From: Lentisphaerota bacterium
GTDB lineage: Bacteria > Verrucomicrobiota > Kiritimatiellia > RFP12 > UBA1067
Length of the DNA: 64,000 bases
Reading direction: 5' to 3'
NCBI GenBank assembly: GCA_015061665.1
Contig: SUWC01000001.1
Location: 35,737-99,736, forward strand
Translations under genes and position numbers: made by a program
Notes under the pieces: model-generated
The model's input: the letters and a program-made list of their open reading frames with translations, nothing else
Told to the model about the DNA's origin: nothing
Databases searched by the model: none
Part shown: positions 6,531 through 43,100 of the stretch, one piece after another
Layout: every line of letters starts with the position of its first letter
Position numbering within the stretch: position 1 is the first letter of the stretch

Positions 6531-6607
6531 GGGGCTGTAGCTCAACTGGATAGAGCATCAGACTACGAATCTGAGGGTTGTGGGTTCGACTCCCGCCAGC
6601 CCCGCCA
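6531..6607 (+). tRNA. tRNA-Arg (anticodon ACG)
   Basis: GGGGCTGTAGCTCAACTGGATAGAGCATCAGACTACGAATCTGAGGGTTGTGGGTTCGACTCCCGCCAGCCCCGCCA. Cloverleaf with anticodon loop CTACGAA, encoded CCA. Confidence 0.9.
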
Positions 6608-6620
6608 GTCGAAACCAGAT

Positions 6621-6697
<77 letters not shown>

Positions 6698-6732
6698 AAT
6701 TCCGTGAAGATCTGGCTCACGGCGACACACGG

Positions 6733-6809
6733 CGGACCGTAGCGCAGCCTGGTAGCGCGTTTGCTTGGGGTGCAAAAGGTCACGAGTTCAAATCTCGTCG
6801 GTCCGACCA
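6733..6809 (+). tRNA. tRNA-Pro (anticodon GGG)
   Basis: Acceptor CGGACCG/CGGTCCG, anticodon stem TTTGC/GCAAA with loop TTGGGGT, T-loop TTCAAAT, CCA end. Confidence 0.85.
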
Positions 6810-6859
6810 CCTTGCAGAAGGTGATGCGTTGTGTTTGAGGTGCGGATTCGCACAATTAT

Positions 6860-6933
6860 GGTGGGATGGCCGAGCGGTTAGGTAGTGGACTGCAAATCCA
6901 CGTACAGCGGTTCAACTCCGCTTCCCACCTCCA
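6860..6933 (+). tRNA. tRNA-Cys (anticodon GCA)
   Basis: Acceptor GGTGGGA/TCCCACC, anticodon stem GTGGA/TCCAC with loop CTGCAAA, T-loop TTCAACT, CCA end. Confidence 0.85.
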
Positions 6934-13032: not shown

Positions 13033-13117
13033 GCTCGGGTGGTGAAATTGGCAGACACGCATGCTTGAGGTGCATGTGGAGAGATCCTTGCGGGTTCGAG
13101 TCCCGCCCCGAGCACCA
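13033..13117 (+). tRNA. tRNA-Leu (anticodon GAG)
   Basis: Acceptor GCTCGGG/CCCGAGC, anticodon stem CATGC/GCATG with loop TTGAGGT, long variable arm, T-loop TTCGAGT, CCA end. Confidence 0.85.
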
Positions 13118-27461: not shown

Positions 27462-28406
27462 ATGTCCGGCAAACTCGACGAGATAGGCGCGAAGATCGAC
27501 GGGCTCGGACTCTGGGAGGCCGTAGCGCCGTACAACTGGGCCGTGAAGCCGAAGGGCACGGTCTTTCCCTATTTCTGCACGCTCATGAAGGGCGAAGGCG
27601 CGCCCGTCAAGGTGCGCTTCCTCATGATAGAGGGCTGGCAGACTTTCCACGACTTCCTGCGCACGCGCATCGACCCCAATTTCGGCTTCTACACGACGCC
27701 GATGGAGATTCCCCATTTCGAGATGATCGTCCTAATGAACGGCGCGACGAAGGTCTTCAGGCACGACCCCGGCTACGTTCCGCGCGAGATCACGGATGCC
27801 GAGGCTGGAATAGTCGAGCGCATCCTCTGGGAGTCCTACGGCGTCATGATGCGCATGGAGTCTGACAAGGGACTGGCGATGAAGTACGCGGACGAGAAGG
27901 CCGTCTTCGCGCGCGTCGAGGAGGAGCCTGGCAAGTGGGCTGACGCGCCGCTTGCGATTCCTGATCCGCGTCCGCACGTCGAGCGCATATCGTTCCAGAA
28001 GGCGGATGCCGCCGCGGCGAAGGACCTTCCGTTCGCGCAGGAGGAGGTCCTTGAGGTTGACTTCCGCATAATGCCGTCGCTGATGACGGTGGAGAAGCGT
28101 CCGCGCTGCGCATACATACTCGGCGCGATAGACTCGAAGACGGGCGAACCGGTGATGCAGCTGAGGACGAGCGTTCAGGCGGACGGCGGGCTGCGCGCGA
28201 TGTGGGAGGGTATGCCTGCCAGGTTCCTGAAGGAGCTGATTGCGCGCAAGAAGATTCCCGGCGAGGTGAAGGTGCCGTCGCTTCGAGTCTTCCGCATGCT
28301 GCGTCCGCTCTGCATGGAGATCCCGTTCAAGCTGTCGTTGCACGACTCGCTGCCGCGCCTGAACGCGGCGTTCGCCTCCTGGGCATCACCCCCTACCGCC
28401 TCCTGA
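27462..28406 (+). CDS. Hypothetical protein (314 aa) of unknown function, immediately downstream of gspF
   Basis: Clean ORF with high-GC third positions; starts 5 nt after the gspF stop. No recognisable motif. Confidence 0.55.
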   Translation: MSGKLDEIGAKIDGLGLWEAVAPYNWAVKPKGTVFPYFCTLMKGEGAPVKVRFLMIEGWQTFHDFLRTRIDPNFGFYTTPMEIPHFEMIVLMNGATKVFRHDPGYVPREITDAEAGIVERILWESYGVMMRMESDKGLAMKYADEKAVFARVEEEPGKWADAPLAIPDPRPHVERISFQKADAAAAKDLPFAQEEVLEVDFRIMPSLMTVEKRPRCAYILGAIDSKTGEPVMQLRTSVQADGGLRAMWEGMPARFLKELIARKKIPGEVKVPSLRVFRMLRPLCMEIPFKLSLHDSLPRLNAAFASWASPPTAS

Positions 28407-28584
28407 TAAGGGCGTGTCGCATTCAACAGTAGCAGGTATTTGCGATGCGTCTGAAATCGCCCGATTTGACGCTCCTCAGACGAAGCTTGCATCCGCTTCG
28501 CAGATAGCAGCGAGGCAGTTGGAACGTTAGCATCCCTCGATTTCTCCTCGCGAGCAGCCCATGGCCCAGACAAGCAACCGCATG

Positions 28585-28745
28585 CGGCTTTCTAGGTTTC
28601 TAGGCTTCTAGAATTCTAGGCATCTAGATTTCTAGAGTTTCTAGAGTGGCCACTGGGCAGTGGCTAAACATCTAGAACCACTAGAACCACTAGCTTACTA
28701 GCCCCAGTCCCGCTAGATGGCGAGCCATTCGCCTAGATGCGCTAC
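28585..28745. repeat. CTAG-rich tandem octamer repeats (TTCTAGRN) followed by a CTAGAACCACTAGAACC / CCCAGTCCCGCTAGATGGCGAG block
   Basis: TTTCTAGGTTTCTAGGCTTCTAGAATTCTAGGCATCTAGATTTCTAGAGTTTCTAGAG; a paralogous block lies at 32820-32885. Confidence 0.7.
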
Positions 28746-28747
28746 TC

Positions 28748-28850
28748 AATTTGAAATCGTGCAGCGAGTGCGCGACGGCTACTCCGTGTTGTCTACGAAG
28801 CTCGGGCGCGTATCCGCATTTGGTTCCCCGCTCCTTGCTATTATGGGTTC
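28748..28850 (+). repeat. Conserved roughly 100-bp repeat element, copy 1 (candidate REP/REPIN-like unit or small RNA)
   Basis: CGTGCAGCGAGTGCGCGACGGCTACTCCGTGTTGTCTACGAAGCTCGGGCGCGTATCCGCATTTGGTTCCCCGCTCCTTGCTATTATGGGTTC. Near-identical at 32168-32270 and, inverted, at 35170-35290. Confidence 0.75.
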
Positions 28851-28879
28851 GGGTCAGGCCATAAGTTTTCGAAAGTGTA

Positions 28880-29135
28880 AGCTAGCGCCCCGCTAAATCC
28901 CCGCGCGAAGCTCCTATTTTTAGCGGAGGGGTGGCGGGAGCGGGGTGTGCCGAGTGAGACGCGCGCAGGCTGAGCCGTTGAATGACGTTGCACGCAACCA
29001 CTGATCATCGCCGAGGCTTGACTGACTAAGCGAAGCTTCTTGTCTTGAGCAAGAAGGCTCAAAGACCTGCGCGGTCGAGACCGAGGCAGCAGCCCCGGCC
29101 CGCCACCCCGTAGCGTCCGTGGGTCGCTGATATAT
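28880..29135. repeat. Further mosaic repeat blocks shared with 32925-33060 (CGCTAAATCC...TTTTTAGCGGAGGGGTGGCG hairpin; CACCCCGTAGCG)
   Basis: Collinear similarity to the 32.9-33.06 kb spacer, including a conserved CCGCTAAA / TTTAGCGG inverted repeat. Confidence 0.6.
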
Positions 29136-29168
29136 GGTATAATAAAGGTAGATGAAAGGAAATGAACT

Positions 29169-29423
29169 ATGCCGTACGCACTGGTAGAAGACAAGATAGC
29201 TGAGATTTCCCCGCAATATCGCGAGGAGTTATTGGCGTTTATTGATTACTTGCTGTACAGGCAGAAGAAGTCCGTTTCGGGGAATGGCGAGTCGCGTAAA
29301 GCCTCATCATTCATTGGTCAGAGGCGCAAGGGTGTCGGGCGCAAGCTTGGCGGATTTGAGGAAGGATTCCAAATGTCGCCGGATTTCGACGCGCCGTTGG
29401 AATCATTCAAGGAGTACATGTGA
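29169..29423 (+). CDS. DUF2281-like small protein (putative orphan type II antitoxin)
   Basis: 84 aa. N-terminal SPQYREELLAFIDYLLYRQKK resembles the DUF2281 pattern; C-terminal DFDAPLESFKEYM. SD AAAGGA. Only a 20-codon remnant follows after an ATGTGA overlap, so no intact toxin partner. Confidence 0.4.
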   Translation: MPYALVEDKIAEISPQYREELLAFIDYLLYRQKKSVSGNGESRKASSFIGQRRKGVGRKLGGFEEGFQMSPDFDAPLESFKEYM

Positions 29424-29695
29424 AATACCTTCTTTGGAGGTTCCCCACTTTTTCTGGCATGAAAAAGGCCACACCCCAGTAAACAAAGGGTGAAGTGGCA
29501 ATTTTCATTTTGTGTTAAGTGAAAATCCACTTCCGGTTTGTAATTGAACTCCGAGCGTTTGGGCTCCCGCGCGGCATCGACGACCCGCTCGTCGCTCCGC
29601 GACGCAACAAGGGCGAGCGTTAGCGAAGCCCCGTCTGCGATGGTCTGTGGTTAAAATACCACAAACTGTAACGCGGCTGGAAGCGGCGGCGCCTC

Positions 29696-29738
29696 CCATT
29701 CCTCATTCCCCGTTCCCCATTCCCCACTCCCCAAATAT
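29696..29738. repeat. C-rich heptamer tandem repeat (CCCATTC/CCCGTTC/CCCACTC x about 5)
   Basis: CCCATTCCTCATTCCCCGTTCCCCATTCCCCACTCCCC. Reverse complement of the G-rich block at 35045-35126. Confidence 0.8.
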
Positions 29739-29752
29739 GCTATAATATTAAC

Positions 29753-31351
29753 ATGGAACCTTGCGAAAAGAAAATTAAGGTGCCCACCACGGGGTTGTTT
29801 GACTTCCCTGAGCTTATACTCGGGGGCGAGGGAAAGTATGTAGACAAGACCGACCTTCTGTACAGGCTTGCCTCGCCAACGGCCGATGCGCAGCTTTTCA
29901 TCTCGCGTCCGCGTCGCTTCGGCAAGTCGCTCATGCTCTCCACTTTGAAGGCGATGTTCGAGGGACGTCGCGACCTATTCAAGGGCCTTGCCATCGATGC
30001 GCTTCCCTGGGAGGGATGGGAGCGGCCTCGCCCCGTGCTCTTTTTCGACATGTCGCGCCTTTCGCCGTCCGAAGGCCGTAAAGCGATGGAAATCGCCCTT
30101 GCCGGACAGATCCGAGAGGCTGCGGAAACGTTTGGCGTGGGTCCGCTGGACACGGGCTCCATAGGGTTCGCGTTCGACGAGTTGATCAGAAGGGTGGCGG
30201 CGACATCGAGCGACGGCAAGGTCGTCGTTCTGGTAGACGAATACGACGCGCCAATGACGAGCGTCCTTGACGATCATGAGTATCTGCGCTGGATGAGGTT
30301 CTTCCTGCATGATTTCTACTGCCGCCTCAAGAGCAATTCCGGCATCATCCGGTTCCTCATGATGACTGGCGTGACGAAGCTCACGAAGCTGTCGATCTTC
30401 TCTGGGCTGAACCACCTAACCGACCTTACGATGGATCCGCGCTTCGCGACATTGCTCGGCTACACGCCGGAGGAGCTGGACGGTCCCCTGCGCGAGAACG
30501 TCGAGGTGTTCGCCGCGCAGAACGGCATGGACTTCGCGGCCGCGAAGAAGGCGCTTCTCTCCTGGTACGACGGATATAGGTTTTCGCCCGACTCCGAGGC
30601 GAAGGTGTGCAATCCAGTGTCGCTCGGCAAGGCGCTGAAGACATGCAAGCTGAAGAACTACTGGGAGGCGACGGGCCACGCCACGATCATCGTCAACCGC
30701 ATCAAGGCCGCGGACGAGATTCCTGCGGACCTGAACGGACTGGTTGTTTCGCAGACGCAGCTTGATGTCTGCGATGCCGAGACGATGCCGATCGAGGCGT
30801 TGCTCTACCAGGGTGGATATCTGACCATCAAGCGTGTGCGCGCCTCGGGGCGCCTCGAACTTGGAATGCCGAACGAGGAAATCTCCACTTCCCTGTCCGA
30901 GGGCTACGTCGCGACCTTGCTTCGCAACGGCATGTCCGACTGGAACGAAGAACTGGCGGACGCGCAGGACGACTTGATCGAGAAGGGCGTGGAGACGCTT
31001 CTTAAGAAGAACCTCAAGTCCGCGTTCGCTGCGGTTCCGCACGAGTGGAAGATCGAGAGCGAGCGTGAGGCGAAGCGCTACTTCCTTTTGTTCATGAAGC
31101 TGATCGGCTCTGAGATCTCCGGCGAGCGGCAGAGCGCGCGCGGAAGGGCGGACGCGATACTCAAGGACAAGAGCGGCGTCTACGTCTTCGAGTTCAAGTA
31201 CGGCAAGTCGGCGGCGGAGGCGCTCCAGCAGGCCCGCACGAAGGAGTACGCGGGCCCCTGGCTCGACGGCGCGCCGCCGGTCTTCTACGTTGGCGTCAAC
31301 TATGATCCCGCGAAGCGCGGTATCGACGACCCGCTCGTCGAACCTGCGTAG
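29753..31351 (+). CDS. Predicted AAA-ATPase (PF09820-like) with C-terminal PD-(D/E)xK nuclease domain (DUF1703-like)
   Basis: N-terminus KIKVPTTGLFDFPELILGGEGKYVDKTDLL and the P-loop-like RRFGKSLMLS match the family. C-terminus GRADAIL...YVFEFKYGKS gives D...E-x-K. TATAAT sits 3 nt before the ATG (near-leaderless). Confidence 0.7.
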   Translation: MEPCEKKIKVPTTGLFDFPELILGGEGKYVDKTDLLYRLASPTADAQLFISRPRRFGKSLMLSTLKAMFEGRRDLFKGLAIDALPWEGWERPRPVLFFDMSRLSPSEGRKAMEIALAGQIREAAETFGVGPLDTGSIGFAFDELIRRVAATSSDGKVVVLVDEYDAPMTSVLDDHEYLRWMRFFLHDFYCRLKSNSGIIRFLMMTGVTKLTKLSIFSGLNHLTDLTMDPRFATLLGYTPEELDGPLRENVEVFAAQNGMDFAAAKKALLSWYDGYRFSPDSEAKVCNPVSLGKALKTCKLKNYWEATGHATIIVNRIKAADEIPADLNGLVVSQTQLDVCDAETMPIEALLYQGGYLTIKRVRASGRLELGMPNEEISTSLSEGYVATLLRNGMSDWNEELADAQDDLIEKGVETLLKKNLKSAFAAVPHEWKIESEREAKRYFLLFMKLIGSEISGERQSARGRADAILKDKSGVYVFEFKYGKSAAEALQQARTKEYAGPWLDGAPPVFYVGVNYDPAKRGIDDPLVEPA

Positions 31352-33240
31352 CAATAAGGGCGTGGAGCAGTCGACTTCCAAGTCACTGGCTGTTTCCACA
31401 ATTCCATAATTCCACAATTACCCTGCTTGCTGTGTAAGGGCTTGGCTTCGTTCGGGGCAACGGTCCTCGCCTTTTGATACGGCCGATTTGCGCGTCCTCA
31501 CGCGGCTCGGCAACCGCTAGGTTTGCCTTTGCCGCGAGTCCTGCTCAAATCGGCTCGTCTGAAAAGGTTCCGGTCCGCGCGGCCCCGATCGAAGCCAACC
31601 TTGCATTTTCGAAAACGTTCGCCGCGACGCCTTCGCGCCGGACGCCCCGGCCCCGCAGAGCCGTCCGGCTCCTCCCGCGCCCATCATCGGCAATCCGCCT
31701 CGCCTGGCTTCGTCGCGCGACGACGTGGCTTGCGCCGCGCCGCCGCGCGTCCTTGCCATGCTCGCGTCTTGCCGCGCTGGACGCGAGCCGGAGGCGTTCG
31801 ACCTGCTCCGCCAGTTCGTCCGTCGCTAGTCGTTGCGTCTCGCTTGTGCCGCATTGCGCGCTGCCGTGCGTGGTCCTCCCCGGTCCAAAACGGGCTTCTC
31901 GCCAGTGAGTCAAGCCTTTGCGGTCAAACAACAAAAAGGGCGTGGAGCAGTCGACTTTTCAGTCGCTACGCATTCGCCTTCCTCGCGCGCTCCCGATTCG
32001 TCTGATTCGGTGCGAGGCCTGTGAATGTCCGTCGCGGGATGCGCCTGTCGCGAAGCGATCAGGTTGGGTGAGCGCAAAGCGCGAACTGCGAAGCAGCCGC
32101 CAGGCCCCGCGCGACGGACCCCCTGCAAGTGTCATTCCTTGCCAATGTATTCGTCCAGATGCGCTGCTCTATGTGAAATCGTGCAGGGAGTGCGCGACGG
32201 CTACTCCGTGTTGTCTACGAAGATCGGGCGCGTATCCGCATTTGGTTCCCCGCTCCTTGCTATTAGGTGTTAAGACAAGAAACCACGAAATACACCAAAT
32301 ACACGAAAGGGGAGACAAAGTGACCGTCCTAGGCCAATCGACACTTCGCACGAAAAACATTATCGTGCCTATTGCACTGAATGTTACATATTTGCTAAAA
32401 TATGGGTGGCGAAGGCGAAAGCCGGAGTCACCGGCAGGCGGAAAAGTTTCCGCTGATGGCGAGGAGTAATCCTCGCCATTACTTTTATCGTTGTAAATTG
32501 AGACTAAGCAGTCGTTTGCAATTTACTCTTCAAAGACTGTCTATGTTGATGATGTCCACCCCGCGGAATATAGACTATTTCAAGTCGCTGATACTCTTTG
32601 CACGCTAGAATTAACGAGGGCGAAGCTAGATGCAGGAGATAGGCTTTCTGCATCTGAGTTTGAGTTCTTTGGAGGAATTCAGAACTTGAGGAAGCAATAT
32701 TTAAAGCCAATCTCCCGCAAGCGCCTGTGAAGAAATTGCTTTCGATGCGCTTATCCACTATGGGCCCGTGCATCGAGTGCGCGACGGCTAGAACAGAGAA
32801 TGTAAAATAAAAAGTGTAAAATGTAAACCTCTAGAACCACTAGAACATCTAGCCCCAGTCCCGCTAGATGGCGAGTTATTCACCTAGAAGAATGTAAAAT
32901 GTAAAGTGTAAAATGTAAAGTTGCTAGCGCATCGCTAAATCCCAGTGCGACGCTCACATTTTTAGCGGAGGGGTGGCGAGCCGCCCGCCCGCACGGATCG
33001 GGCGACGTCGTCGGGCGCCACCCCGTAGCGACTGAGAAGCCCCGGCTCGCCGCCGTAGCGCTCACGGGGTCATGCGACCACACGAGTGCTCACCCCCCCA
33101 GATCGCCGCATACCACTATATATTGTGCCCGACATAGGCCAATCGACGCTTCGTATACAACCCCGTAAAAAAATTCACATTTCCCCCTTGCGGGGGAAGA
33201 GAAAATGTGCTAAGATATAGTCGTCAAGTAAGAAAAGGAG
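31352..33240. repeat. 1.9-kb repeat-rich spacer with no credible ORF
   Basis: Contains AAGGGCGTGGAGCAGTCGACTT x2 (31358, 31925); the 100-bp element copy 2 (32168-32270) and a partial copy at 32750-32790; TGTAAAATGTAAA heptamer runs (32800-32930); and blocks shared with 28.6-29.1 kb. All track ORFs here look like GC-driven artefacts. Confidence 0.7.
33185..33222 (+). promoter_or_regulatory. Promoter of the secreted-protein gene: CCCCCTTGCGG-N17-TAAGAT
   Basis: TTGCGG at 33188-33193 inside the palindrome-like CCCCCTTGCGGGGG; TAAGAT(ATAG) at 33211; SD AAAAGGAG before the ATG at 33248. Confidence 0.55.
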
Positions 33241-33247
33241 ACTGCAA

Positions 33248-34984
33248 ATGAAAAAACTACTTACTGTATTAGCTGCCTCGGTTGGCATCGCGGCTTTTGC
33301 GGCGGAAGGTGATCCGCTCTCGGCCACGAGCTTCGAGAACTATAGTGGCGACTTCAGCGTCACCAAGGGCGATGCTGGTGGCGATTCTGTTCCAGCTGGC
33401 GATCGCACTTGGGCAGGTGATGCTGACGCGGATGGCGACACGAACGTCATCACCGAGTATGGCGAAGCTACTAAGCCCGCGAACCGTCCTGACTACTATG
33501 CCGGAAACAATCAGGCGCAGTCCAAGTTTCTTAAGGTCGACTCCACCGCTGGTCTTGCCCGCTATGTAAACGCAGGCGGCGGTGCGCAAGGTTTGGGCTC
33601 GAACGTCTACTTTGACATGGACGTTCAGTTCACGGTCTCCGACAGCGTTCAGGAAGCTGCCGAGGGCGACAAGCTCCTCGTCTGGCTCTATGCGCCGGAT
33701 ACCGAGAACGCTCAGACCAACCTTGTCATCACGGCGGCGACGATTGCCAGCAACTTGGAAACGACGCCGGTTAACTATGTCGTCGCGGTTCCTGAGACAT
33801 CTGTTCAGGCTGACACGTGGTATCGTCTGACTGTTGTTTCGACCACAAAGGATGTGAGCAGTGCTGCGGTTCCCCACTTCCAGGTCTATATTGACGGCAA
33901 GCAGGCGATTCCTACGGGCACGATGGCTTCCGATGGTGCGATTACCGCGCTTCTGGGGCATGACGGCCTCTTCGGCAGCCTTGTTGCGTACAATCAGGAG
34001 GACGACACCACCACCACCCTCACCTCTGTCACGTTCAAGGGCACGGGTGCGGTTGATGATCTCGTCGTCACCACCGTCAAGCCGAGCTTCATCCCGGAAG
34101 ACGTACTCCCGTTCGCAATCGGCGATCAGCCGTATGCTTCCCTTGCTGATGCGCTTGATGCGGCCGAGGATAGTGATGTGATTAAGGTTATGGCCAATAA
34201 CACAAGCGACATTGGCGAAATTGGCGAGGCTACGATTGACCTTAACGGCAAGACGCTGACATTCAGTGCAGATGAGATAGAGGTTACTGTTGGCCTTGTG
34301 TTTATCAACTCTGCGGCTGCTGAGGCTACGGTTGCCGGATCGGAGGGAACGACATTCTTGGTTCAAGACGGTACATTGACGATTGGCGCATCTGACGATG
34401 CTGGTGCAGTCACGATGACCGCAGTGATCGCTGCCTACAACACGGTCAAGGTCTATGGTTCCAATACTAAGCCGGCTCTCAGCAATGATGGTGACCTCAA
34501 GGCATGGTCGACGGCGGCAGATGAAGATGGTTATTACACGGCTGTTGCGGGTGGCGGAGAGCCGACGAGCGACACGTATGATATTCCTGGAGATGCTTCG
34601 CTCAGCGATGGCGGCACGATAACGGTTCCTAATGGAACTGCCAAGATCAAGCTCGGTGACAATGATGTCACGGCTGGCTTTACGATCAACGGCACGACCG
34701 CGACGCTCAAGGCGCCTGTCATTGAGGCGACGGCTGATACGACCGATGAAGACACCAAGGACGAGGCTCTCGTTGTCACCGACACTGAGGTCAAGATCGG
34801 TGTGAAGGCTGTCAAGGGCCTCTACTACGGAGTCGGCTCCAGCACCGACGTTACGAAGGTTGCACGTCCTGCGGCGCTCATCAAGTTCACGGGCGACAAC
34901 AGGGTCGAGATCTTCACGAAGGACAAGACCGAGAATGCCGACGGCGAGTTCTACAAGGTCTACGTCGACATCAAGGCTGAGTAA
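33248..34984 (+). CDS. Secreted protein of unknown function (578 aa; signal peptide; Asp/Thr-rich beta-rich)
   Basis: MKKLLTVLAASVGIAAFAAEG signal peptide, strong SD, consensus promoter and a strong intrinsic terminator, consistent with a highly expressed extracellular protein. Confidence 0.8.
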   Translation: MKKLLTVLAASVGIAAFAAEGDPLSATSFENYSGDFSVTKGDAGGDSVPAGDRTWAGDADADGDTNVITEYGEATKPANRPDYYAGNNQAQSKFLKVDSTAGLARYVNAGGGAQGLGSNVYFDMDVQFTVSDSVQEAAEGDKLLVWLYAPDTENAQTNLVITAATIASNLETTPVNYVVAVPETSVQADTWYRLTVVSTTKDVSSAAVPHFQVYIDGKQAIPTGTMASDGAITALLGHDGLFGSLVAYNQEDDTTTTLTSVTFKGTGAVDDLVVTTVKPSFIPEDVLPFAIGDQPYASLADALDAAEDSDVIKVMANNTSDIGEIGEATIDLNGKTLTFSADEIEVTVGLVFINSAAAEATVAGSEGTTFLVQDGTLTIGASDDAGAVTMTAVIAAYNTVKVYGSNTKPALSNDGDLKAWSTAADEDGYYTAVAGGGEPTSDTYDIPGDASLSDGGTITVPNGTAKIKLGDNDVTAGFTINGTTATLKAPVIEATADTTDEDTKDEALVVTDTEVKIGVKAVKGLYYGVGSSTDVTKVARPAALIKFTGDNRVEIFTKDKTENADGEFYKVYVDIKAE

Positions 34985-35007
34985 GCTCTAGCGACAGCGA
35001 AAACGAG

Positions 35008-35042
35008 GCCCGTGGCAGAAATGCCGCGGGCTTTGTTTTTTT
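35008..35042 (+). terminator. Rho-independent terminator
   Basis: Stem GCCCGTGGC / GCCGCGGGC (one mismatch), loop AGAAAT, followed by TTTGTTTTTTT. Confidence 0.75.
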
Positions 35043-35044
35043 GG

Positions 35045-35126
35045 ATGGGGAATGGGGAACGGGGAATGGGGAACGGGAAGAGGGGGAATGGGGAATGGGA
35101 AGAGGGGGAACGGGGAATGGGAAGGG
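35045..35126. repeat. G-rich heptamer tandem repeat (GGGGAAT/GGGGAAC x about 11), potential G-quadruplex-forming
   Basis: GGGGAATGGGGAACGGGGAATGGGGAACGGGAAGAGGGGGAATGGGGAATGGGAAGAGGGGGAACGGGGAATGGGAAGGGC. Inverted copy of the 29696-29738 block. Confidence 0.8.
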
Positions 35127-35169
35127 CTCGGCAAGATTCGCATCACGAATGCCTATTCGAGGCTACACG

Positions 35170-35290
35170 AAAATTGGCGCCCGAAGACTATATTCGCTGA
35201 ACCCATAATAGCAAGGAGTGGGGAACCAAATGCGGATACGCGCCCTTGCCGCGAAGCCAATACGGAGTAGCCGTCGCGCACTCGCTGCAC
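35170..35290 (-). repeat. Conserved roughly 100-bp repeat element, copy 3 (inverted orientation), immediately upstream of the RAYT gene
   Basis: Reverse complement reads CGTGCAGCGAGTGCGCGACGGCTACTCCGTATTGGCTTCGCGGCAAGGGCGCGTATCCGCATTTGGTTCCCCACTCCTTGCTATTATGGGTTC. Confidence 0.75.
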
Positions 35291-35423
35291 GTATTCAACG
35301 TCGATAGGCGCGTCTTTGGCGTAAGGGTAGCGCGTAATCGCAAACACAGACAACCTCGCGGCTTTCCAGCTTTTGAAAATGATATAATATCAAAGATTTC
35401 AAATTAGCCTGGAGGCGAGATAC

Positions 35424-36797
35424 GTGGAAATAAAAGCCGAGATACAGCCATCGAAGTTAAGACGATGCAATGGTTGGGATTACCGCCAGCCTTGCATCTA
35501 TCAGATAACAATTGTTTTAGCCAATAGGAAAAGCCAGCTGCTGGGGCGGCTTGTGGTGGGGGAAGCTGCCGCGCCAGAGGGCAAATCAAGTCGTTCTGTG
35601 CTTGAAGCGGCAGCTTCAAGTTACACTTCTCTTTCCCCGGCGGGCGAGGCGGTAAAGGCCGAATTTTTCAAGATAGGCGAGCATCACCCTGAGATAAAGC
35701 CGCTTGAAATCATGGTTATGCCCGATCACTGCCATTTCATAATTCGCGTAATGCGGCCGATGGCCAAGCCGCTCGGCAACGCGATAGGCGGCTTCAAGGC
35801 CGGCAGCTCAAAGGCAGCAATCGGAAAGCCTGGCCTATGGGCAGATGGCTTTCAAGATACCATACTCTTTCACGAGGGCCAGCTCGCGGCGATGTTTACC
35901 TATTTGCGCGACAACCCACGAAGGCTGGCAGTTAAACGGCTGATGCCAGAGCTTTTCAGGGTAAGAAGGGGCTTGAAACTGCCGCTTCAAGTGGGAAGCA
36001 ACCACGAGCTGCCGCTCGTGGCACAGAACAAGAACCCCGAGCTGCCGCTCGTGGCACAGAACAACAACCCCGAGCTGCCGCTCGTGGCTGAGAGCAACTT
36101 GAAGCTGCCGCTCGTGGCACAGAACAAGAACAAGTCGGCTTTCTTGAGTTGCTCTGAGCCAAAGGCGGAAGCCTTTGGTTTCTTCACCGCCATCGGCAAC
36201 CACTTTCTTCTTAGAGCGCCAAGTATATTGCAGGTTCAGGTATCGCGGCGAGATTTTGCCTATAGGCGCGTGGCGAAGCCGGGCGGCGGGGTTAAGATAG
36301 AGCGCGATGACGCCGGCTGCCCTTTGGCGGCGGCGGCAACGCCAGCTTTCATCGAAAAGCGCGATGAGCTGATGGCAGCCGCTGAACATGGCGCCGTTTT
36401 GATAAGTCCCTGCATCAGCGACGGCGAAAGAGAAATCGCGAGGCTTGCTTTTTCGAAGGGCTTGAAGGTTGTCACCCTTTCGAACAAAGGCTTTTCACCG
36501 CTTTACAAGCCTGGCGGCAAGCTCTTTGATATGACAGCCAATGGCAATTTGCTTATGCTCGCGCCAATAAACTGGCCATATTGCCCAGGCGAGAAAAAGA
36601 TGACTCGCATCGACGCCTGCATACTCAACCGAATCGCCCAGTGGCTAGCCGGGAGCGGGGCTGCCAAGATCGACTACAAGGGCATGAAGCCCAATGACAT
36701 CGACCGCCTCGCTAGGAGCGCCATTTACCGGCACCAACTCGCCACTTCAGCTGCGATAGCGCCTGCGGCGCGAACCACGAAAACGCGGCTCATCTGA
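35424..36797 (+). CDS. REP-associated tyrosine transposase (RAYT; IS200/Y1 HuH) fused via an 11-aa tandem-repeat linker to a C-terminal domain of about 230 aa of unknown function
   Basis: Conserved RAYT blocks: ITIVLANRKSQLLGRL; the HuH motif MPDHCHFIIRV; LWADGFQDTILFHE; and the catalytic-Tyr motif TYLRDNPRRLAV (the Y-x-x-x-N-P helix). Then ELPLVAQNKNP x4-5. Then a C-terminal region (ISPCISDGEREIARLAFSKGLKVVTL...) with no recognised motif. Confidence 0.75.
   Translation: MEIKAEIQPSKLRRCNGWDYRQPCIYQITIVLANRKSQLLGRLVVGEAAAPEGKSSRSVLEAAASSYTSLSPAGEAVKAEFFKIGEHHPEIKPLEIMVMPDHCHFIIRVMRPMAKPLGNAIGGFKAGSSKAAIGKPGLWADGFQDTILFHEGQLAAMFTYLRDNPRRLAVKRLMPELFRVRRGLKLPLQVGSNHELPLVAQNKNPELPLVAQNNNPELPLVAESNLKLPLVAQNKNKSAFLSCSEPKAEAFGFFTAIGNHFLLRAPSILQVQVSRRDFAYRRVAKPGGGVKIERDDAGCPLAAAATPAFIEKRDELMAAAEHGAVLISPCISDGEREIARLAFSKGLKVVTLSNKGFSPLYKPGGKLFDMTANGNLLMLAPINWPYCPGEKKMTRIDACILNRIAQWLAGSGAAKIDYKGMKPNDIDRLARSAIYRHQLATSAAIAPAARTTKTRLI
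35974..36135 (+). repeat. 33-bp tandem repeat (4 copies plus a degenerate fifth) inside the RAYT-fusion ORF, each unit forming the hairpin CCACGAGC-TGCC-GCTCGTGG
   Basis: GAGCTGCCGCTCGTGGCACAGAACAAGAACCCC repeated at 36007, 36040, 36073 and 36106. In frame, encoding ELPLVAQNKNP. Confidence 0.85.
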
Positions 36798-37003
36798 CGC
36801 GCGGCTCAAGGCTTGCAAATTCTCCGCGCAAGGGGTTGTGGGAGCGCGGTAAAAATCGCCAAGAAAATATTTTGCCTCTTAATGGCCATAAAAACCACAA
36901 TATATTGGGGTGTTTTGATTTCCTATCGCCACTAGGGGCGAAAGTTTGCTAAAATAATAAGTGATAGTGGGTAAATTGTGCCTTCTGCAGGCGCTATTCT
37001 CCT

Positions 37004-37091
37004 GTTATCTACAGTTGTCGATAACTTGTCGGCAACCCTGTTGGCAAGATGATGAAGTTGTCAAAGGGATGTTGACAAGTCTGTTGGCAGA
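37004..37091 (+). promoter_or_regulatory. Array of six direct repeats T(T)GTYRRCAA immediately upstream of the megaprotein gene (candidate operator)
   Basis: TTGTCGATAA 37016, TTGTCGGCAA 37026, TGTTGGCAAG 37039, TTGTCAAAG 37058, TGTTGACAAG 37070 and TGTTGGCAG 37083, spaced 10-19 bp apart. The array ends 13 nt before the GTG start. Confidence 0.45.
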
Positions 37092-37103
37092 AAGGAACGA
37101 AAG

Positions 37104-40100
37104 GTGAAGATAGATAGCGCGAAAGCGACGCTGAAGCGGCTGATGACGGCCATCTTTGCGATGGTCGGCGTCAGCGTATGCGCTCGCGGTGCGGTCACGT
37201 ACCCCGTCACGGCCGAAGAAGCAGCCTCCTACGGCGGCGCAACCGGCGGCGACATCGTCAACATGATCGTCGAGGACGGCGGCAGCGTCTATCTCGCGCA
37301 CATCTTCACCAACACGGCCGCTTCGGCCACCCTTACGATTCCCTCCGCCAACAAAATCATGTCCGGCACTGGTCGCATCCTCCTCGTCGGAGGCGGCGGC
37401 GCGGGCGGCGGCGACTGCGGAGGAGGCGGTGGCGCGGGCGGCGTCGTGATCTCCAACAACTGGACCTTTGCCGAAGGCAGCATGACGGTCTCCGTCGGCG
37501 CTGGCGGCGCGTCGGCGGCGCGCGGGGACGCGGGCCACGACGGCTCGGCCACTACTCTCCTTCTCGGCGGCGTCACCTGGACGGCCCTGGGCGGCGGCGG
37601 CGGCGCTAAGTGCAACAATGTGGACGCTAAGAGCGGCGGCTCGGGCGGCGGCGGTGCGCGCAGCATGGCGAAGGGCAACGGACTTCAGCCCTCCCACGCC
37701 ACTACGCCCGGCTTCGGCAACGGCGGCGGCGCGGCAAACGACTACCGGGGCGGCGGAGGCGGCGGCGCGGGCAGCGCAGGCGCAAATGCCGTAGGCAATG
37801 TTTCCGGCAACGGCGGCGACGGCATTGAGTCGGACATCACCGGCGTTTCGAAGTGGTATGGCGGCGGCGGTGGCGGCGGCGGAAACGCCAGCGACCTTGC
37901 CGGACGCGGCTTCGGCGGCAAGGGCGGCGGTGGACACGGCTCCCTCAGCGGCAACTACTACGGCAGCCAGGGATATGCCCACGGCTGGAACGGCGAACCC
38001 GGCACCGGCGGTGGCGGCGGCGGCAGCGGCGGCGACTCCTCTGATGTCGCCAGCGGCGCGGGCGGAAGCGGCATTGCCGTTATCCGCTATCAGGTTGACC
38101 TCTCCGAAGGCGGCGACCCGCTGACGTCAGCGGACAAGGTGCGCGTTGCGCCGATTACCGCTGAAGAGGCTGTCGCGCTTGGCGGCGCGACGGGCGGCGA
38201 CCTGATAAGGAAGGTCCGCAACGACGACGGGACCTTTGACGTCGTCCACATCTTTACGAACACGGCTTCCGCGGCGGTTTTCGGCATTGGCGCGGTCAAT
38301 GGCGTCATAGCCGACTCTGGACGCTTCCTGGCGGTCGGCGGCGGCGGCGGCGGTGGCTCCACGGCTGGCGGCGGCGGCGGCGCGGGCGGCTTTGTCGCTG
38401 GCAATGTTACGCTTTCACAGGGACAGTATCAGGTAATCGTCGGCGCAGGCGGAGCGGGAGGCGCCAGCTCCAACGTCCGCAACCGCGGAACCGTCGGCTC
38501 TGACACAACGATCACGAACCTCACGACGTCCACCCAGATCGCGCTTGCACTTGGCGGCGGCGCGGGCGGTACGCTCGGCTCCACGCCTAACACCCACCGT
38601 CCTGGCGGCAACGGCGGTTCTGGCGGTGGAAGCGTGCGCGGCTATTCGACGTCGGAAGACGGCTCGTATTCCGGCAAGGCGTTGCAGCCCACAGAGGGCT
38701 ACCCTGCTGGTGGTTATGGATGCGATGGCGGGACTGGCAAGAACGACAATAACTACGGTGGCGGCGGCGGTGGCGCTGGCGGTGCCGGTGTTGGCGGCAC
38801 GGACTGCACGGGCGGCGCGGGTATGGAGTCCGACATACTTGGCTATGTGCAGATGTTTGCCGCAGGCGGCGATGGCGCGGCCAGGGGATACTATCCTGGC
38901 GCTGACGGCGAGGTCGCGACCGGCAACGGCGGTGGCGGCGGCGGTGGCAACGCGAACGCTGGCGCCGGCGGCGGAACCGGCGGCTCGGGCGTTGTAGTGA
39001 TCCGCTATACGATTCGCGGCGGAGAGATCAAGGAGATGGAGGACGGCTCCACGCTCTACAAGTTCGACGGCGACGCCATCTTCACGCTCGAAGGCGCAGC
39101 ACAGGTTCGTGTTCTCGCAGTCGGCGGCGGTGGCGCTGGTGCGTCTGGGGCAAAAGGCGCTGGTAGCCGTGGTGGAAATGGCGGTGGCGGCGCTGGTGGT
39201 TTTGTAGATGTAACGAATGTCTGGTCAGGTGCCTCGTATACTATAGCGGTAGGTGCAGGTGGTGTCACCGATTCCGTTACTGGATCAGATGCATCTAGCA
39301 GGAACGGCGGAGACACTGTTATTTCAACTTCCGGAAACGCTGTAATAACTGCCTTGGGCGGCGGCGGCGGCGGTGCATACGGCCCAGGCGCAGCCGGTGG
39401 ATCGGGCGGCGGCGGTTCGTGCTCTGACACATCGCCTTATGCTGCTGGTTTAGGAGGTACTGCATCACAGGGCTATGACGGCGGCATCGGCACACAGGCT
39501 ATTGGCCGTTCTGGTGCAGGCGGCGGTGGCGCAGGCGGTCCTGGTGCAAACACGGCAACAAACAACACTGGTGCTGATGGCGGTGCGGCCAAGGAAAGTG
39601 ACATTTCTGGAACAATTCAGTATTATGCTGCTGGTGGCGGCGGCGGTGCTCGTACAGGAACAGGCGGTAAAGGCGGTGCCGGTGCAGATAAAGTCGTTAT
39701 CGGCGGCACTGGTGGCGGCGATGCCACGACGGCCAAGGGCCTTGATGGCACCGGTTCCGGCGGTGGCGGCGGCAGCAACAGCTCCGTCGGTGGCGCTGGT
39801 GGCTCGGGTATCGTCTATATCCGCGTTATACGCTACATGCCGAAGACGCCTGAGCCCGAGTATATTTTCGAGTATGCGAACACCGAGTACGTCGTGTTCG
39901 AGCGCGAGGCTATCGACGAGGATGTGTTCACGATTACCACCGGGGACAATGTCTCCACCAACCGCATTGCGGCGACTGCGAAGGGCGTCTACACCTACAC
40001 TCTCGCCCTCACTGCTGATGCGCGTGCGAAGGGCTTCACGTGGTTCGACGGGACGACTGAGGACAAGCACGTCACGCTGACGATCTCAAAGACGATTTCC

Positions 40101-43100
40101 GAGATCTACTCCATCCACCAGTACGGCTGGCAGATCGGCGAGGAGCGTCCCCCGCTCCAGCTCGACATGAACCCCGAGGGCGTGCCCTACTTGACTCAGT
40201 TCGCCAATTCCGAGCTTGGCCCGTGGGCAACCAAGTCGTGGGACGACTTCGAGGAAGTGCCCGGCACCTACTGGCTGCGCATCGTAGTTGAGGAGAGCGA
40301 CAACTACACAGGCGTTACGAGCGATCCTGTAAGCTTCAAGGTCTGGGAGTATAATGCGACGAAGTATCCGACCTACCTCGGCTACCACAAGGACATCGTG
40401 GTCGACGCGACTACGTTTGCGGGTGTTACCGAGACGCTCACGGACTTCCCGATGCTCGTCAAGGTCTCCGAAGATCTCATCCCCGACTTCTACAAATACG
40501 CCGATTCGTCCGACGGCTACGAAGGCATCCGCTTCACCGTGCCTGGGCCCGACGGCGCAGCGGTTGAGGTCCCGTTCGAAGTCAACGAGTGGAACGAAGG
40601 CGGCGAATCCTCGTTCTGGGTGAAGGTTCCGTCCTTCGCTCCTGGCGCATACGCCGTCACGATCAACTACGGCGACATCGGCGGGGAGCTGCCCGAGAAC
40701 GATCCCTCGCAGGTGTGGAGCGACTACATAGCGGTCTGGCACCTTGACTCGGGGCACTATACCGAGGATGCGACCGGTCACGGCTATACGCTTTCGGGCG
40801 GCACAATGACGGCGGGCGCGGACTCCGTCTTCGGCTCGTCGACATACGCCAGCAACGGCACGCTCGTCGCAAAGGAATGGGAAGGCGACTATCCCTCCAG
40901 CGGCAGCAACTTCACCTACACCGCCTGGTACAAGGCGCAGGGATACAGCGGCAACATGAACTTTGCGGGCAGGAAGCCCCTGACGGGCTCGTACGATCCC
41001 GGCGGCTGGATGCTGAGGCTTGAAGAAAGCGTTTCTACAACCATACGATTCTATACCTCGACGAACTCCGCAGGAGCCTACTACACGATCAAGGACATCC
41101 CTGCGCTCAAAGACAACTGGGACTTCATCGCCATTGCATCCTCGGGAGTCAGGTTTGACGTTACAGTGAACGACGCCGTGAAGGCGTCGGAAACAAATCC
41201 TCAATACCTGATCTACAGCGGAGACACGCCCGATCAGCTCAATGTCATGACAAAGTTTATGGCGGCGGATGAAGTGCGCGTGACGGAGAAGGTCCGCAGC
41301 CAGGCGTGGCTCCTTGCGGAGTACCTGCAGGGCAAGCTTTCGTCCGAGAACCCCGGCATCGTCGTGGGCGACGAAACGTTCGTCACCCCCGGCGCGACGT
41401 TCTCCAACAAGTGGCTTGAGTACCCGACGATCAACCCGATTCGCTGGTTTGCGGGGCAGACGACGTCCATCAGCCTCGGCAGCGCGCTGTACGGCGAGGT
41501 GGAGTATGTCTTCAACGGTGCGGACGGTTCGGCGCTTACGAACGCCATTCCGACTACGGCAGGGTCGTACGACGTCGTGTTCTTTGTCAGGGAGATCGAT
41601 TCGGGAACCTGCACATACGCAGGACTTGTCTACGCCTATCCCGAAGTCATCGACATCCTTGTGAAGAACGACGGCACTGGCGGCCTTGGCGGCACGACTG
41701 GCTCGGCCACGCTCTCCGGCCGCGTCCTTCTCGCCAACGACGACGACCTCGCAGGCTTCGAGATCTCCGGGCAGTGCTACTGGCAGACTAACGAAACCGC
41801 CGACACCTACTGGGTGCACGAAGCCGAGTCGTCGGTGTTCCTGCTGAACATGATGGGGCAGGGCACGATCAATACGTTGATGTCCAAGGAACCTGTAGAC
41901 GAGCTATGCGGCGCGACCCGCATCTGGCATCTGGACAATGTCCGTATCGGCAACACTGAGTATGATGATTTGCAACCGTCGGACCGTATGTGCTATCTGC
42001 CGTGGTCAAGCACATCCAAGGTGCTTTCTGAGAATGGTAGCTATATAACGACAAAAACTGCTGCGAATTGTGCTCATCTTGCGATGCGTAGCGTTTCGGG
42101 CGCTGCTGTGTATTCGCCCTGCTATACGAACGGCATCGGCACGATCTACTTTGACGCCGTCAACGCGTGGACGGTGGACAACAACTATCCGACCAACTAC
42201 ACGATTGTCATTGAGTATGCGACGAACTGCGTTGAAAGCGTTGGATATGACAAGCTGCCAACGGACGCCAATCTAACCACTCTTATAGAAGTACTTGACG
42301 AAGAGGAGAACGTTGTCGATTCCTACAACGGCGTTGACTACGAGCGCGCCAACTGGCAGCCGATCGACATGGTTCCTCTCTACTACGACGGAAAAGATTT
42401 CCAAACCAGCTACTCCAAGACTTTTGGCGACGTCGTCAACTCGTTCGACGGACCTGTTTCGTCTCTCTGTCTCGACGAGACAGTTGGCGGAGGACGCGAC
42501 AGGTTCTTCCGCATCCGTGTCCCCGTCCTTGACGAGCTTGACGGCTACCGCGGGCCGATCCGCTTCAGGATCAAGCGTACGACGACCAAGGGTGTCGGCC
42601 TTGACAGTAACAACTTCATCCTTCTCGACAACCTTATCGTCTCGTATCCTGCGATGACGGCGAACCTTGAGCCGAGGGGCAAGTTCGATCCGACGCGCTA
42701 CGGAAAGAAGGCGCTTGGCACGGAGTGTGCGTTCGACGTTCCGTTCCCCGCAGTCGGCGATTCCATCAAGGGCCTTGCGAAGGGGAGCTTCGAGACGAAC
42801 CCGCTCGTCGTGGATGCGGATACTTCGACGTTCGTGACGGGCGCGAAGCTCCACTACCGCTGGCGCTACCTCAACCAGGATTTCGGTGAATGGGCCGCGG
42901 TCGCCGTTGCGCCGAACACGTGGGAGGCTGCAACCCCGCTCAACCTTTCCGACTACTCCGACCGCCCGGGCGACGTCGAGTACTGGTACGAGCTTCTGCA
43001 GAACGCGCCGTACTACTCGTACACCGACTACTCGGGACTCGGCATTGGTCTTGGCGGACTCTACAGCGAGAACATCCCCGTCGTCACCAACCGCTGCGAC

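Follow-up and report, generated by a model that had tools for sequence, protein, structure and literature searches.

A repeat-dense region at a synteny breakpoint of a gut/rumen Kiritimatiellia contig, probably a strain-variable site of accessory genes

Introduction

Plasticity zones in general and, in Neisseria, the minimal mobile elements or intergenic cassettes are found at a fixed site, hold strain-specific cassettes and have no mobility genes of their own. Bacterial interspersed mosaic elements (BIMEs) and repetitive extragenic palindromes (REP) in enterobacteria and BOX elements in Streptococcus pneumoniae are short intergenic modules that occur in varied order and orientation, and a RAYT-type gene is found near BIME/REP. 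The Rickettsia palindromic elements are palindromic units that are inserted in frame and translated within genes. The locus compared here with these systems is a variable region of 8.4 kb (28406-36823) from a gut/rumen Kiritimatiellia metagenome contig, which had been singled out from the sequence alone as a repeat-dense accessory island. It was analysed within a stretch of 64,000 nucleotides (Lentisphaerota bacterium, assembly GCA_015061665.1, contig SUWC01000001.1, positions 35,737 to 99,736), called the window in the following, and coordinates refer to the window unless another locus is named.

Extent of the variable region and its counterparts in related lineages

The region is probably a strain-variable accessory region at a synteny breakpoint, into which self-sufficient accessory genes have been dropped and there truncated and rearranged. 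The four relatives compared (L009-L012) keep the gene order 2-Hacid_dh, T2SSF and DUF6930, and their synteny with the window ends exactly at the DUF6930 stop codon, downstream of which nothing in their DNA matches any part of the window. The same locus of a related lineage is represented by L041. Identity with the window is 89% at the 3' end of the ATPase gene, 85-87% in the secreted-protein gene and 96% (from 36824 onward) in the DNA upstream of a giant gene; the RAYT-like gene, the GC-rich filler and copy B of a 100-nt element are missing from L041, its two cores are arranged differently, and its TTCCACAA module lies inverted within the G-heptamer array. In L015 the left half of one composite repeat block of the window (block 2) is joined to the right half of another (block 1), with the crossover within the core of about 70 nt that both blocks share. 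L024 departs from the window at 29570 and then continues like L041; L023 departs at 30027 and carries a mosaic allele of the ATPase gene. From the end of synteny in the relatives and the breakpoints in L041, L015, L024 and L023, the variable region is therefore placed at 28406-36823 (its features are collected in Table 1).

This synteny comparison bears out the original prediction of a variable hotspot, as L041, L015 and L024 carry different content at the same place. The description of the repeats as a mosaic reused in different orders is literally true as well: modules are reordered, reoriented and relocated in related strains, and sub-modules of the 100-nt element, together with others, recur apart, inverted or beside unrelated genes in L013, L014 and L041. 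That the island lies between conserved core genes stands for the left side only; the Gly_rich_2 gene on the right was seen to be conserved solely in the close strain L041 and not in the four relatives, where neither of the two giant genes that follow the region is seen up to 10 kb downstream of DUF6930. To the left, the window carries the core genes leuS, plsX, the T2SS F gene and DUF6930, and its right end holds ackA and pta (61.5-63.8 kb), which are core genes too. The nearest named relatives of the DUF6930 protein belong to Kiritimatiellia metagenome-assembled genomes from sheep colon and rumen-type samples (59-64% identity).

An assembly artefact or chimera was considered and ruled out. 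A 136-kb metagenome contig of the Joint Genome Institute (sample 3300031555) matches the window, and contigs from other samples are 99.2-100% identical to it over the shared stretches, including one of 15.5 kb at 99.99%; because of these matches the arrangement is not attributed to chimeric assembly.

The segment of about 4.15 kb between the blocks (28700-32850) could also be read as a mobile element that is or was integrated there, the two blocks being attL and attR and L015 showing the attP-type junction of a circle or donor. As in an integrative island, direct repeats are present at both ends (about 70 nt, 90-93% identical; 28665-28737 and 32824-32888, families D3 and D8), the exact reciprocal junction is found in L015 with the crossover inside the shared core, and the cargo is of a kind common in small islands (a toxin-antitoxin remnant, an AAA-ATPase/nuclease and DUF3800). 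Nevertheless, neither the four island genes nor the further ORFs (open reading frames) that were scanned, a subset of those of the window, have an integrase or recombinase domain, no relaxase was found in the segment or in that subset, and the tRNA target of an integrative island is missing, the nearest tRNA being at 13033-13117. Besides, L015 is a linear 2-kb contig with 86% identity on its DUF2281 side and 96% on its DUF3800 side, and because of this difference it represents the arrangement of another lineage and not a circle of this strain; L041 has another order, two cores and no such unit. An integrated element is thus considered unlikely, and a strain-variable accessory region is preferred. 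Related to this, 28410-33250 has no DNA match in plasmid or phage collections, three motif scans of viral contigs gave no match, PHROG returned nothing for the proteins of the region except a marginal hit (E = 0.008) for the DUF3800 protein of L015, and no PADLOC model matched any island protein or this DUF3800 protein at E <= 0.01.

Table 1. Features of the variable region and its edges, in order of position in the window.
Feature	Position	Strand	Basis
DUF6930 stop-codon edge, start of the variable region; diverged ATAAGGGCGTG copy at 28406-27, rest non-coding	28406-28588	none	Repeat family D9; no codon periodicity
CTAG octamer array TTTCTAGG, 6.9 copies, partly palindromic	28589-28645	none	Repeat families (I10), tandem-repeat scan
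Shared core, left copy: CTAGAACCA repeats (28672-28693), then CTAGCCCCAGTCCCGCTAGATGGCGAG..ATTC.CCTAGA; recombination joint of block 1	28665-28737	+	Families D3, D8; 90-93% to 32824-32888; L015 crossover inside
100-123-nt element, copy A	28727-28849	+	Families D2, I1; alignment
Block 1, right half: GCTAGCG..CGCTAAA..TTTAGCGGAGGGGTGGCG, then long hairpin closed by CGCCACCCCGTAGCG; upstream of the antitoxin promoter-like TGATATATGGTATAAT	28881-29120	+	Family D6; alignment; conserved in L015
DUF2281/VapB-like antitoxin gene, 84 aa	29169-29423	+	Pfam PF10047 E = 1.3e-12; NCBIfam TA_VapB E = 1.1e-13, 51 bits against a cutoff of 60
21-codon stub VKYLLW..., overlapping the antitoxin stop codon	29420-29482	+	Read from sequence
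68-nt module; follows 23S_rRNA_IVP in L041; L024 and window split at its right end	29503-29570	+	95.6% identity to L041
Stray 3' end of a paralogous AAA-ATPase gene (..GIDDPLV..) with diverged downstream AAGGGCG motif	29569-29625	+	Family D12, 96% over 26 nt to 31315-31340; tblastn with AAA residues 522-531
CCCCATT heptamer array, 5.6 copies, inverse of the 35045-35121 array; abuts TATAAT box 7 nt before the ATPase start	29695-29733	none	I4, I6; tandem-repeat scan; sequence
AAA-ATPase_like + PDDEXK_9 gene, 532 aa	29753-31351	+	Pfam E = 2.2e-46 and 1.9e-9
36-nt repeat CAATAAGGGCGTGGAGCAGTCGACTT.., first copy, directly after the ATPase stop	31352-31387	+	Family D10; 86% to 31932-31967; after the ATPase gene in L041 too
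TTCCACAA octamer array, 3.2 copies	31394-31419	none	Tandem-repeat scan; in L041 inverted, embedded in G-heptamer array
GC-rich filler, 62-67% GC, including second 36-nt repeat (31932-31967)	31420-32148	none	Codon-position GC spread 0.03-0.12; absent from L041
100-123-nt element, copy B	32149-32271	+	Family D2; 93% to copy A; alignment
29-nt junction motif ..TAGGCCAATCGAC.., second copy 33125-33153	32320-32348	+	Family D11, 86%; same two positions in L041
Promoter-like site TTGCAC-18 nt-TAAAAT (32372-32401, by eye), then 85-nt three-hairpin RNA candidate (32404-32488)	32372-32488	+	Folding, terminator scan, alignment
DUF3800 3' stump, about 75 codons	32505-32730	+	96% to L015
Left 47-nt sub-module of the 100-nt element, alone; follows the DUF3800 stop in window, L015 and L041	32744-32790	+	Family D7, pair I3; alignments
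Block 2, left part: TGTAAAA array (32799-32827), CTAGAACCA/core copy (32824-32888; CTAGAACCA 32826-32852), second TGTAAAA array (32891-32919)	32799-32919	+	Families D3, D5, D8; alignments
Block 2, right part: GCTAGCG..TTTAGCGGAGGGGTGGCG..CGCCACCCCGTAGCG frame, short hairpin; upstream of the secreted-protein gene	32923-33040	+	Family D6, 88%
578-aa protein gene, signal-peptide-like N-terminus	33248-34984	+	Translation; weak GC signal at third codon positions
GGGGAAT heptamer array, 10.7 copies, just 3' of the terminator hairpin (35005-35042) of the secreted-protein gene	35045-35121	+	D4; tandem-repeat scan; in L041 with different copy pattern
100-nt element, copy C, inverted, upstream of the RAYT-like gene	35197-35298	-	Pairs I1, I2; 85-90%; alignments
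RAYT-like gene, 457 aa: HUH/Y1 N-terminal domain, conserved unknown C-terminal domain, non-homologous last 28 codons	35424-36797	+	AlphaFold2 + Foldseek; homology to relatives ends at 36712
38-nt interspersed motif ACCACGAAAACGCGGCTCATCTGACGCGCGGC, forms the aberrant 3' end of the RAYT-like ORF	36768-36805	+	92-95% to motif just after an unrelated gene's stop in L013, L014
Right edge, region 5' of the 3,797-aa Gly_rich_2 gene	36824-37103	+	L041 5005-5679 matches window 36824-37498 at 96%; Pfam Gly_rich_2

Repeats and tandem arrays

The repeats of the region are real. All those named in the original prediction are present where they had been located, and none of the motifs occurs elsewhere in the 64-kb window, the chance expectation also being none. 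Recurring 16-mers of the window make up 8.4% of the region versus 1.1% of the 28 kb to its left, and the CTAG sites, which number 63 in the window (about 230 would be expected in 64 kb from base composition), are concentrated in two 1-kb bins that contain 24 of them. L041 has three CTAG octamer arrays, and two of them flank a 23S_rRNA_IVP cassette. This cassette (4112-4976 of L041) consists of a 116-aa 23S_rRNA_IVP-like gene between two arrays about 810 nt apart, and it sits in the place of the RAYT-like gene; in L046 a 23S_rRNA_IVP gene is found two genes upstream of the closest RAYT-like homologue.

The two composite blocks (28590-29120 and 32800-33040) share, apart from the core of about 70 nt, a GCTAGCG..TTTAGCGGAGGGGTGGCG frame of about 56 nt. 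The hairpin of block 1 folds with a minimum free energy (MFE) of -112 kcal/mol (z = -3.0) and that of block 2 has no significant fold (z = -0.5). The 100-123-nt element is present in three copies, two direct and one inverted, which are 85-94% identical, and it is itself composite. Its 37-nt core, TAGCAAGGAG(C/T)GGGGAACCAAATGCGGATACGCGCCC, does not vary among six copies; in L013 and L014 it stands by itself, 5' of an unrelated gene. The element folds no better than shuffled sequence (z = 0.0 to 0.7; 0.2-0.5 for copy A). When miniature inverted-repeat transposable elements were considered, neither terminal inverted repeats nor a significant fold was found, and block 1 differs from block 2 by replacement of a TGTAAAA array, not by a clean insertion. 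Among the shorter motifs, AAGGGCGTGGAGCAGTCGAC is located at 31356 and 31936, 580 nt apart, and GGGGAATGGGGAACGGGGAATGGGG (35047-35071), in the GGGGAAT array, has the pattern G4N3G4N3G4N3G4 of a candidate G-quadruplex-forming motif. Runs of four G4-N3 units are found on opposite strands 5.3 kb apart (35047-35071 on the plus strand; 29695-29733, G-rich on the minus strand), and they bracket the ATPase and secreted-protein genes.

Some of these traits would also suit cis-regulatory DNA, with the arrays of 7-9 nt acting as repressor operators (of the ribbon-helix-helix type, compare the 8-bp met boxes) or as length-variable switches, and the blocks as shared leaders of the antitoxin, secreted-protein and giant surface-protein genes. 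The blocks are located 50-210 nt upstream of two unrelated genes and that of the antitoxin has the significant hairpin, the -10 box of the ATPase gene directly adjoins the CCCCATT array, the CTAG period of 8 nt is regular and partly palindromic, array copy numbers vary between the window and L041, and 11 promoter-like sites are observed in the region versus 4.3 expected. However, the region is without a regulator gene, the same arrays are also present at junctions that have no downstream gene, the relatives of the ATPase gene elsewhere share its promoter without the heptamers, block 2 has no significant fold, and the independent copies number only two or three, too few for a covariation test. 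A regulatory role of the repeats is for these reasons improbable, and their distribution is better described by the exchange of modules in a strain-variable accessory region.

Genes and gene remnants

The gene content is as originally described: a DUF2281/VapB-like gene, an AAA-ATPase_like gene with a PDDEXK_9 domain, a gene for a signal-peptide-like protein of 578 aa and an HUH/Y1 gene of 457 aa. These four genes account for a coding fraction of 57%. The gaps between them are without coding signal. The flanking core genes have a codon-position GC spread of 0.3-0.5; the value is at most 0.13 in 28400-28999, 29000-29149, 29300-29449 and 31400-33350, and 0.16-0.18 over the antitoxin gene and over 29450-29749. 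The ORFs predicted in the gaps show neither codon periodicity nor Pfam hits, and the one of 129 aa in the filler (31545-31934, minus strand) has five fragmentary matches only, with shifting ORF limits and internal deletions, so that their interpretation as artefacts driven by GC content is supported. The related claim that long stretches lack credible ORFs needs to be completed: the coding signal is indeed missing, but a good part of this DNA is recognisable gene wreckage that had gone unnoticed, namely the DUF3800 stump, the stub after the antitoxin gene and the 3' end of an AAA-ATPase gene. These stumps are real. DUF3800 is found in three states of decay, being intact in L015 (229 aa, Pfam E = 4.4e-9), internally deleted in L041 and deleted at its 5' end in the window.

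The antitoxin gene resembles its counterpart in VapBC, a type II toxin-antitoxin module, in that the DUF2281 antitoxin has matches among the models of Pfam and NCBIfam, its stop overlaps the start of the next ORF, and the same antitoxin is followed in L015 by a C-terminal fragment of a PIN protein (Pfam PIN, E = 3e-8). Unlike in such a module, no intact toxin gene is adjacent to it in the region, where the ORF after the antitoxin is cut to a stub of just 21 codons, presumably the remnant of the partner toxin gene; the antitoxin is thus an orphan.

The AAA-ATPase/PDDEXK_9 family is very large in Kiritimatiellia, with no fewer than 7,999 relatives at E <= 1e-20. Most of these relatives are on contigs of 2-5 kb, which is expected because multi-copy genes break assemblies. 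In other genomes, single copies are found between ordinary genes, each with its own -10 box. A TATAAT-like box is found 6-9 nt before the ATG in the window (29741-29755), in L034 (about 5985-6003) and in L035 (about 3985-4003), and this spacing suggests that the genes are expressed as leaderless transcripts. Two candidates related to this family were rejected. The heptamers and the AAGGGCGTG motif do not form a unit with the ATPase gene, since the relatives in L034 and L035 have the promoter and neither motif; and a second, decayed ATPase gene is not present in the GC-rich filler, as tblastn finds just a stump of 10 residues, at 29570-29599.

The secreted protein of 578 aa has no Pfam family and 33 relatives only, the best with 66% identity, and it diverges fast.

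A structured RNA candidate

Small RNAs had been proposed as possible products of the region. One structured candidate of 85 nt was found (32404-32488), with no match in Rfam 15, where gathering scores were reached solely by tRNAs outside the region and the best matches inside it, at 19-25 bits, were far below gathering. No CRISPR, tRNA or known non-coding RNA was detected within the region. The candidate has an MFE of -45.7 kcal/mol (z = -5.6; z = -6.4 for its copy in L041, at 1043-1162), GAAA and GUAA loops, and a 3' end made of a terminator-like stem of 12 pairs followed by a U tract. In L041 the DUF3800 start follows it directly, a junction that the first bases of L015 match as well. It may be a leader or attenuator of DUF3800 that has been orphaned by the deletion in the window, as judged from two near-identical copies.

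How the region may have formed

Accessory cassettes would arrive at this site carrying their own promoters and flanks. The genes so received would be the VapB-like antitoxin (with its toxin later lost), the AAA-ATPase/PDDEXK_9 gene, DUF3800, the fast-evolving secreted protein and the HUH/RAYT-like gene. The DNA between the genes would be composed of stumps of accessory genes, of portable flanks that travel with them (pieces of promoters, leaders and terminators, both halves of the 100-nt element and the post-stop motifs of 36-38 nt), and of short tandem arrays at the module junctions (CTAG octamers, TGTAAAA, GGGGAAT/CCCCATT and TTCCACAA). We infer that homologous or microhomology-mediated recombination by the host, together with slippage between repeats, reshuffles and deletes the cassettes without a dedicated recombinase. 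The arrays and hairpins, including the run of G-quadruplex type, would then be substrates or scars of these recombination events.

Several points weigh against this reading. Contigs of the strain of the window, from several samples, are 99.99-100% identical over the shared stretches, which indicates short-term stability and variability between lineages only. The specificity of the modules for the island is shown for 64 kb only, and a metagenome scan for the 100-nt element returned three loci, the source contig not being among them, so that it has no value as a census. The 37-nt core, with its identical copies in unrelated contexts, hints at a sequence-specific function, either as a binding site or as a translation-start module (AAGGAG-N11-ATG).

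The RAYT-like gene and its family

The N-terminal domain of the 457-aa protein, as modelled with AlphaFold2, retrieves in Foldseek the TnpA transposases of IS200/IS605 and the RAYT structure 4er8 with probability 1.0 and a TM-score to the target of 0.52-0.65, and HxH and Tyr are invariant in the family. Nevertheless, the match to the NCBIfam model REP_Tyr_transpos (E = 1.9e-7, 31 bits) is below the cutoff of 80, and Pfam Y1_Tnp gives E = 0.19. The model of the C-terminal domain is mostly of low confidence, and beyond the HUH domain no fold match was found in the PDB. The last 28 codons of the ORF have no homology to any relative and are partly made of the 38-nt post-stop motif. The family has no Pfam domain, and its members, at least 1,738 proteins, are 56-70% identical along their whole length. 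Of eight distinct loci examined, four have the gene immediately before hsdR inside a type I restriction-modification (R-M) operon; in the other four, the window included, it stands alone. The R-M layouts (among L026, L027, L028-L030, L031 and L033) are hsdM-hsdS-(ApeA/HEPN)-(669 aa)-X-hsdR and hsdM-hsdS-X-220 aa-hsdR.

Each RAYT-like gene contains perfect hairpins of 20 nt (type CTTGAAGCGGCAGCTTCAAG), with stems of 8-9 bp closed by GC round a TGCC or GGCA loop. In the gene of the window the translated palindromes are located at 35601-35620 (within 35586-35627) and at 35972-36131 (a 33-nt unit in 4.1 copies). The hairpins occupy two sites, one on each side of the catalytic core and in inverted orientation; their translation yields variable linkers (PxxAQ / LEAAASS), and the same sites are used in L025-L033. 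Their density is 2.5/kb in RAYT-like genes versus 0.04/kb outside, with four of the six outside hits in the neighbouring hsdR. The stems differ between genes and match between the two sites of one gene, the complementarity between the sites exceeding that of all codon shuffles in five of seven genes. In L025 the palindrome stays perfect though the encoded peptide changes. Three further observations concern this family: the number of hairpin copies accounts for its length range (384-496 aa); the unit is also found inside the hsdR ORF of L031 (at 8422 and 10687) and L033 (at 8425 and 9060); and directly downstream of the L025 gene (11290-11560) there is a heavily deleted mini-copy made of four short collinear fragments.

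A gene of this kind inside the island raises the question of whether its repeats are REP/BIME-type elements spread by this HUH enzyme (35424-36797), given the IS200/IS605-RAYT fold with its conserved residues and the position of the inverted copy C of the 100-nt element, 125 nt from the gene on its 5' side. But the candidate hairpins of the enzyme are found inside its own ORF only, with no copy elsewhere in the 64-kb window; the repeats of the island lack palindromic structure (z about 0) and have nothing in common with these hairpins, the arrays being direct tandem repeats; L041 has most of the repeats and no RAYT-like gene; and the loci of the homologues are without island modules. Such an origin is very unlikely, and the RAYT fusion listed in the original prediction has no link that could be found to the repeats around it.

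It is proposed only tentatively that the protein belongs to an undescribed family of domesticated HUH/Y1 enzymes that would be a component of R-M operons and carry its own in-frame REP-like hairpins; no description of a RAYT-like family in R-M operons with paired palindromes was found in the literature searched. A functional enzyme may have its own gene or the R-M operon as its target, for instance by switching, excising or regulating hsdR, or it may serve as a defence partner. In that case the copy in the island would be an orphan of a decayed R-M operon.

Other features of the window

Two consecutive giant ORFs, 37104-48497 (3,797 aa, Gly_rich_2) and 48934-61494 (4,186 aa), occupy 37.1-61.5 kb, and a 3,580-aa antisense ORF (50299-61041, minus strand), presumably a GC-driven artefact, overlaps the second. 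The DNA 5' of the first (36950-37103) has repeated TTGTC / TTGGCA motifs and is 96% conserved in L041; just 5' of this gene there is a palindromic pair of DnaA-box-like 9-mers, TTATCTACA GT TGTCGATAA (37005-37024). A replication origin (oriC) in the region was ruled out, as the DnaA-box-like 9-mers are scattered (one in the AT-rich part and that pair) and the region has no GC-skew minimum. A DnaA-like gene is encoded on the minus strand at 1233-2681. The first 6000 nt of the window have a GC content of 42-47% versus about 62% elsewhere, are bounded by four tRNA genes (6531-6933) and also encode a 746-aa ORF; this part may be foreign and separate from the rest, or else the true dnaA region, with an unusual composition.

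Implications and comparison with known systems

Uncultured gut/rumen Kiritimatiellia have strain-variable loci with turnover of accessory genes and reuse of short lineage-specific modules. Their knowledge could be of use for strain typing, for explaining assembly breaks in these genomes and for avoiding false gene calls in GC-rich filler. The island itself raises no fresh biological question; the RAYT-like family might, by linking a transposase-derived enzyme to restriction systems.

With respect to integrons, genes of the region are followed by reused motifs of 36-38 nt (31352-31387 and 36768-36805), and cassettes in L041 are flanked by CTAG arrays, as is of interest for a comparison with attC sites; an IntI-type recombinase with attI beside the array was not found among the four island genes and the scanned ORFs of the window. 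The RAYT-like protein resembles RAYT (4er8) and IS200/IS605 TnpA in its HUH/Y1 fold, in HxH and Tyr, and in the inverted palindromes that flank the catalytic core, and it differs from them by scoring below the NCBIfam and Pfam cutoffs, by an extra conserved C-terminal domain, by palindromes translated inside the ORF, by its frequent position before hsdR and by the absence of dispersed REPs among the sequences seen. Like Rickettsia palindromic elements, the palindromes of these genes are in frame and translated; unlike them, they are 20-nt hairpins that are not spread across many genes, being concentrated in one gene family, at two permissive sites, and in the hsdR next to it.

The modules of the region, like BIME/REP and BOX elements, are combined in varied order and orientation with a RAYT-type gene nearby, whereas they are mostly not palindromic, are not dispersed elsewhere in the 64 kb and are unlike the RAYT-like hairpins. 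Plasticity zones and the minimal mobile elements of Neisseria are comparable in their site beside conserved genes, their differing cassettes and decayed fragments, and the lack of mobility genes, so that host recombination is presumably responsible here too; natural transformation is not known for this organism. Unlike in these systems, the conserved flank across genera is shown on the left only, and the region holds unusually many short tandem arrays and reused sub-modules. The region, here documented in detail, is probably an ordinary recombination hotspot, and represents a fresh example of a known phenomenon rather than a novel type of system.

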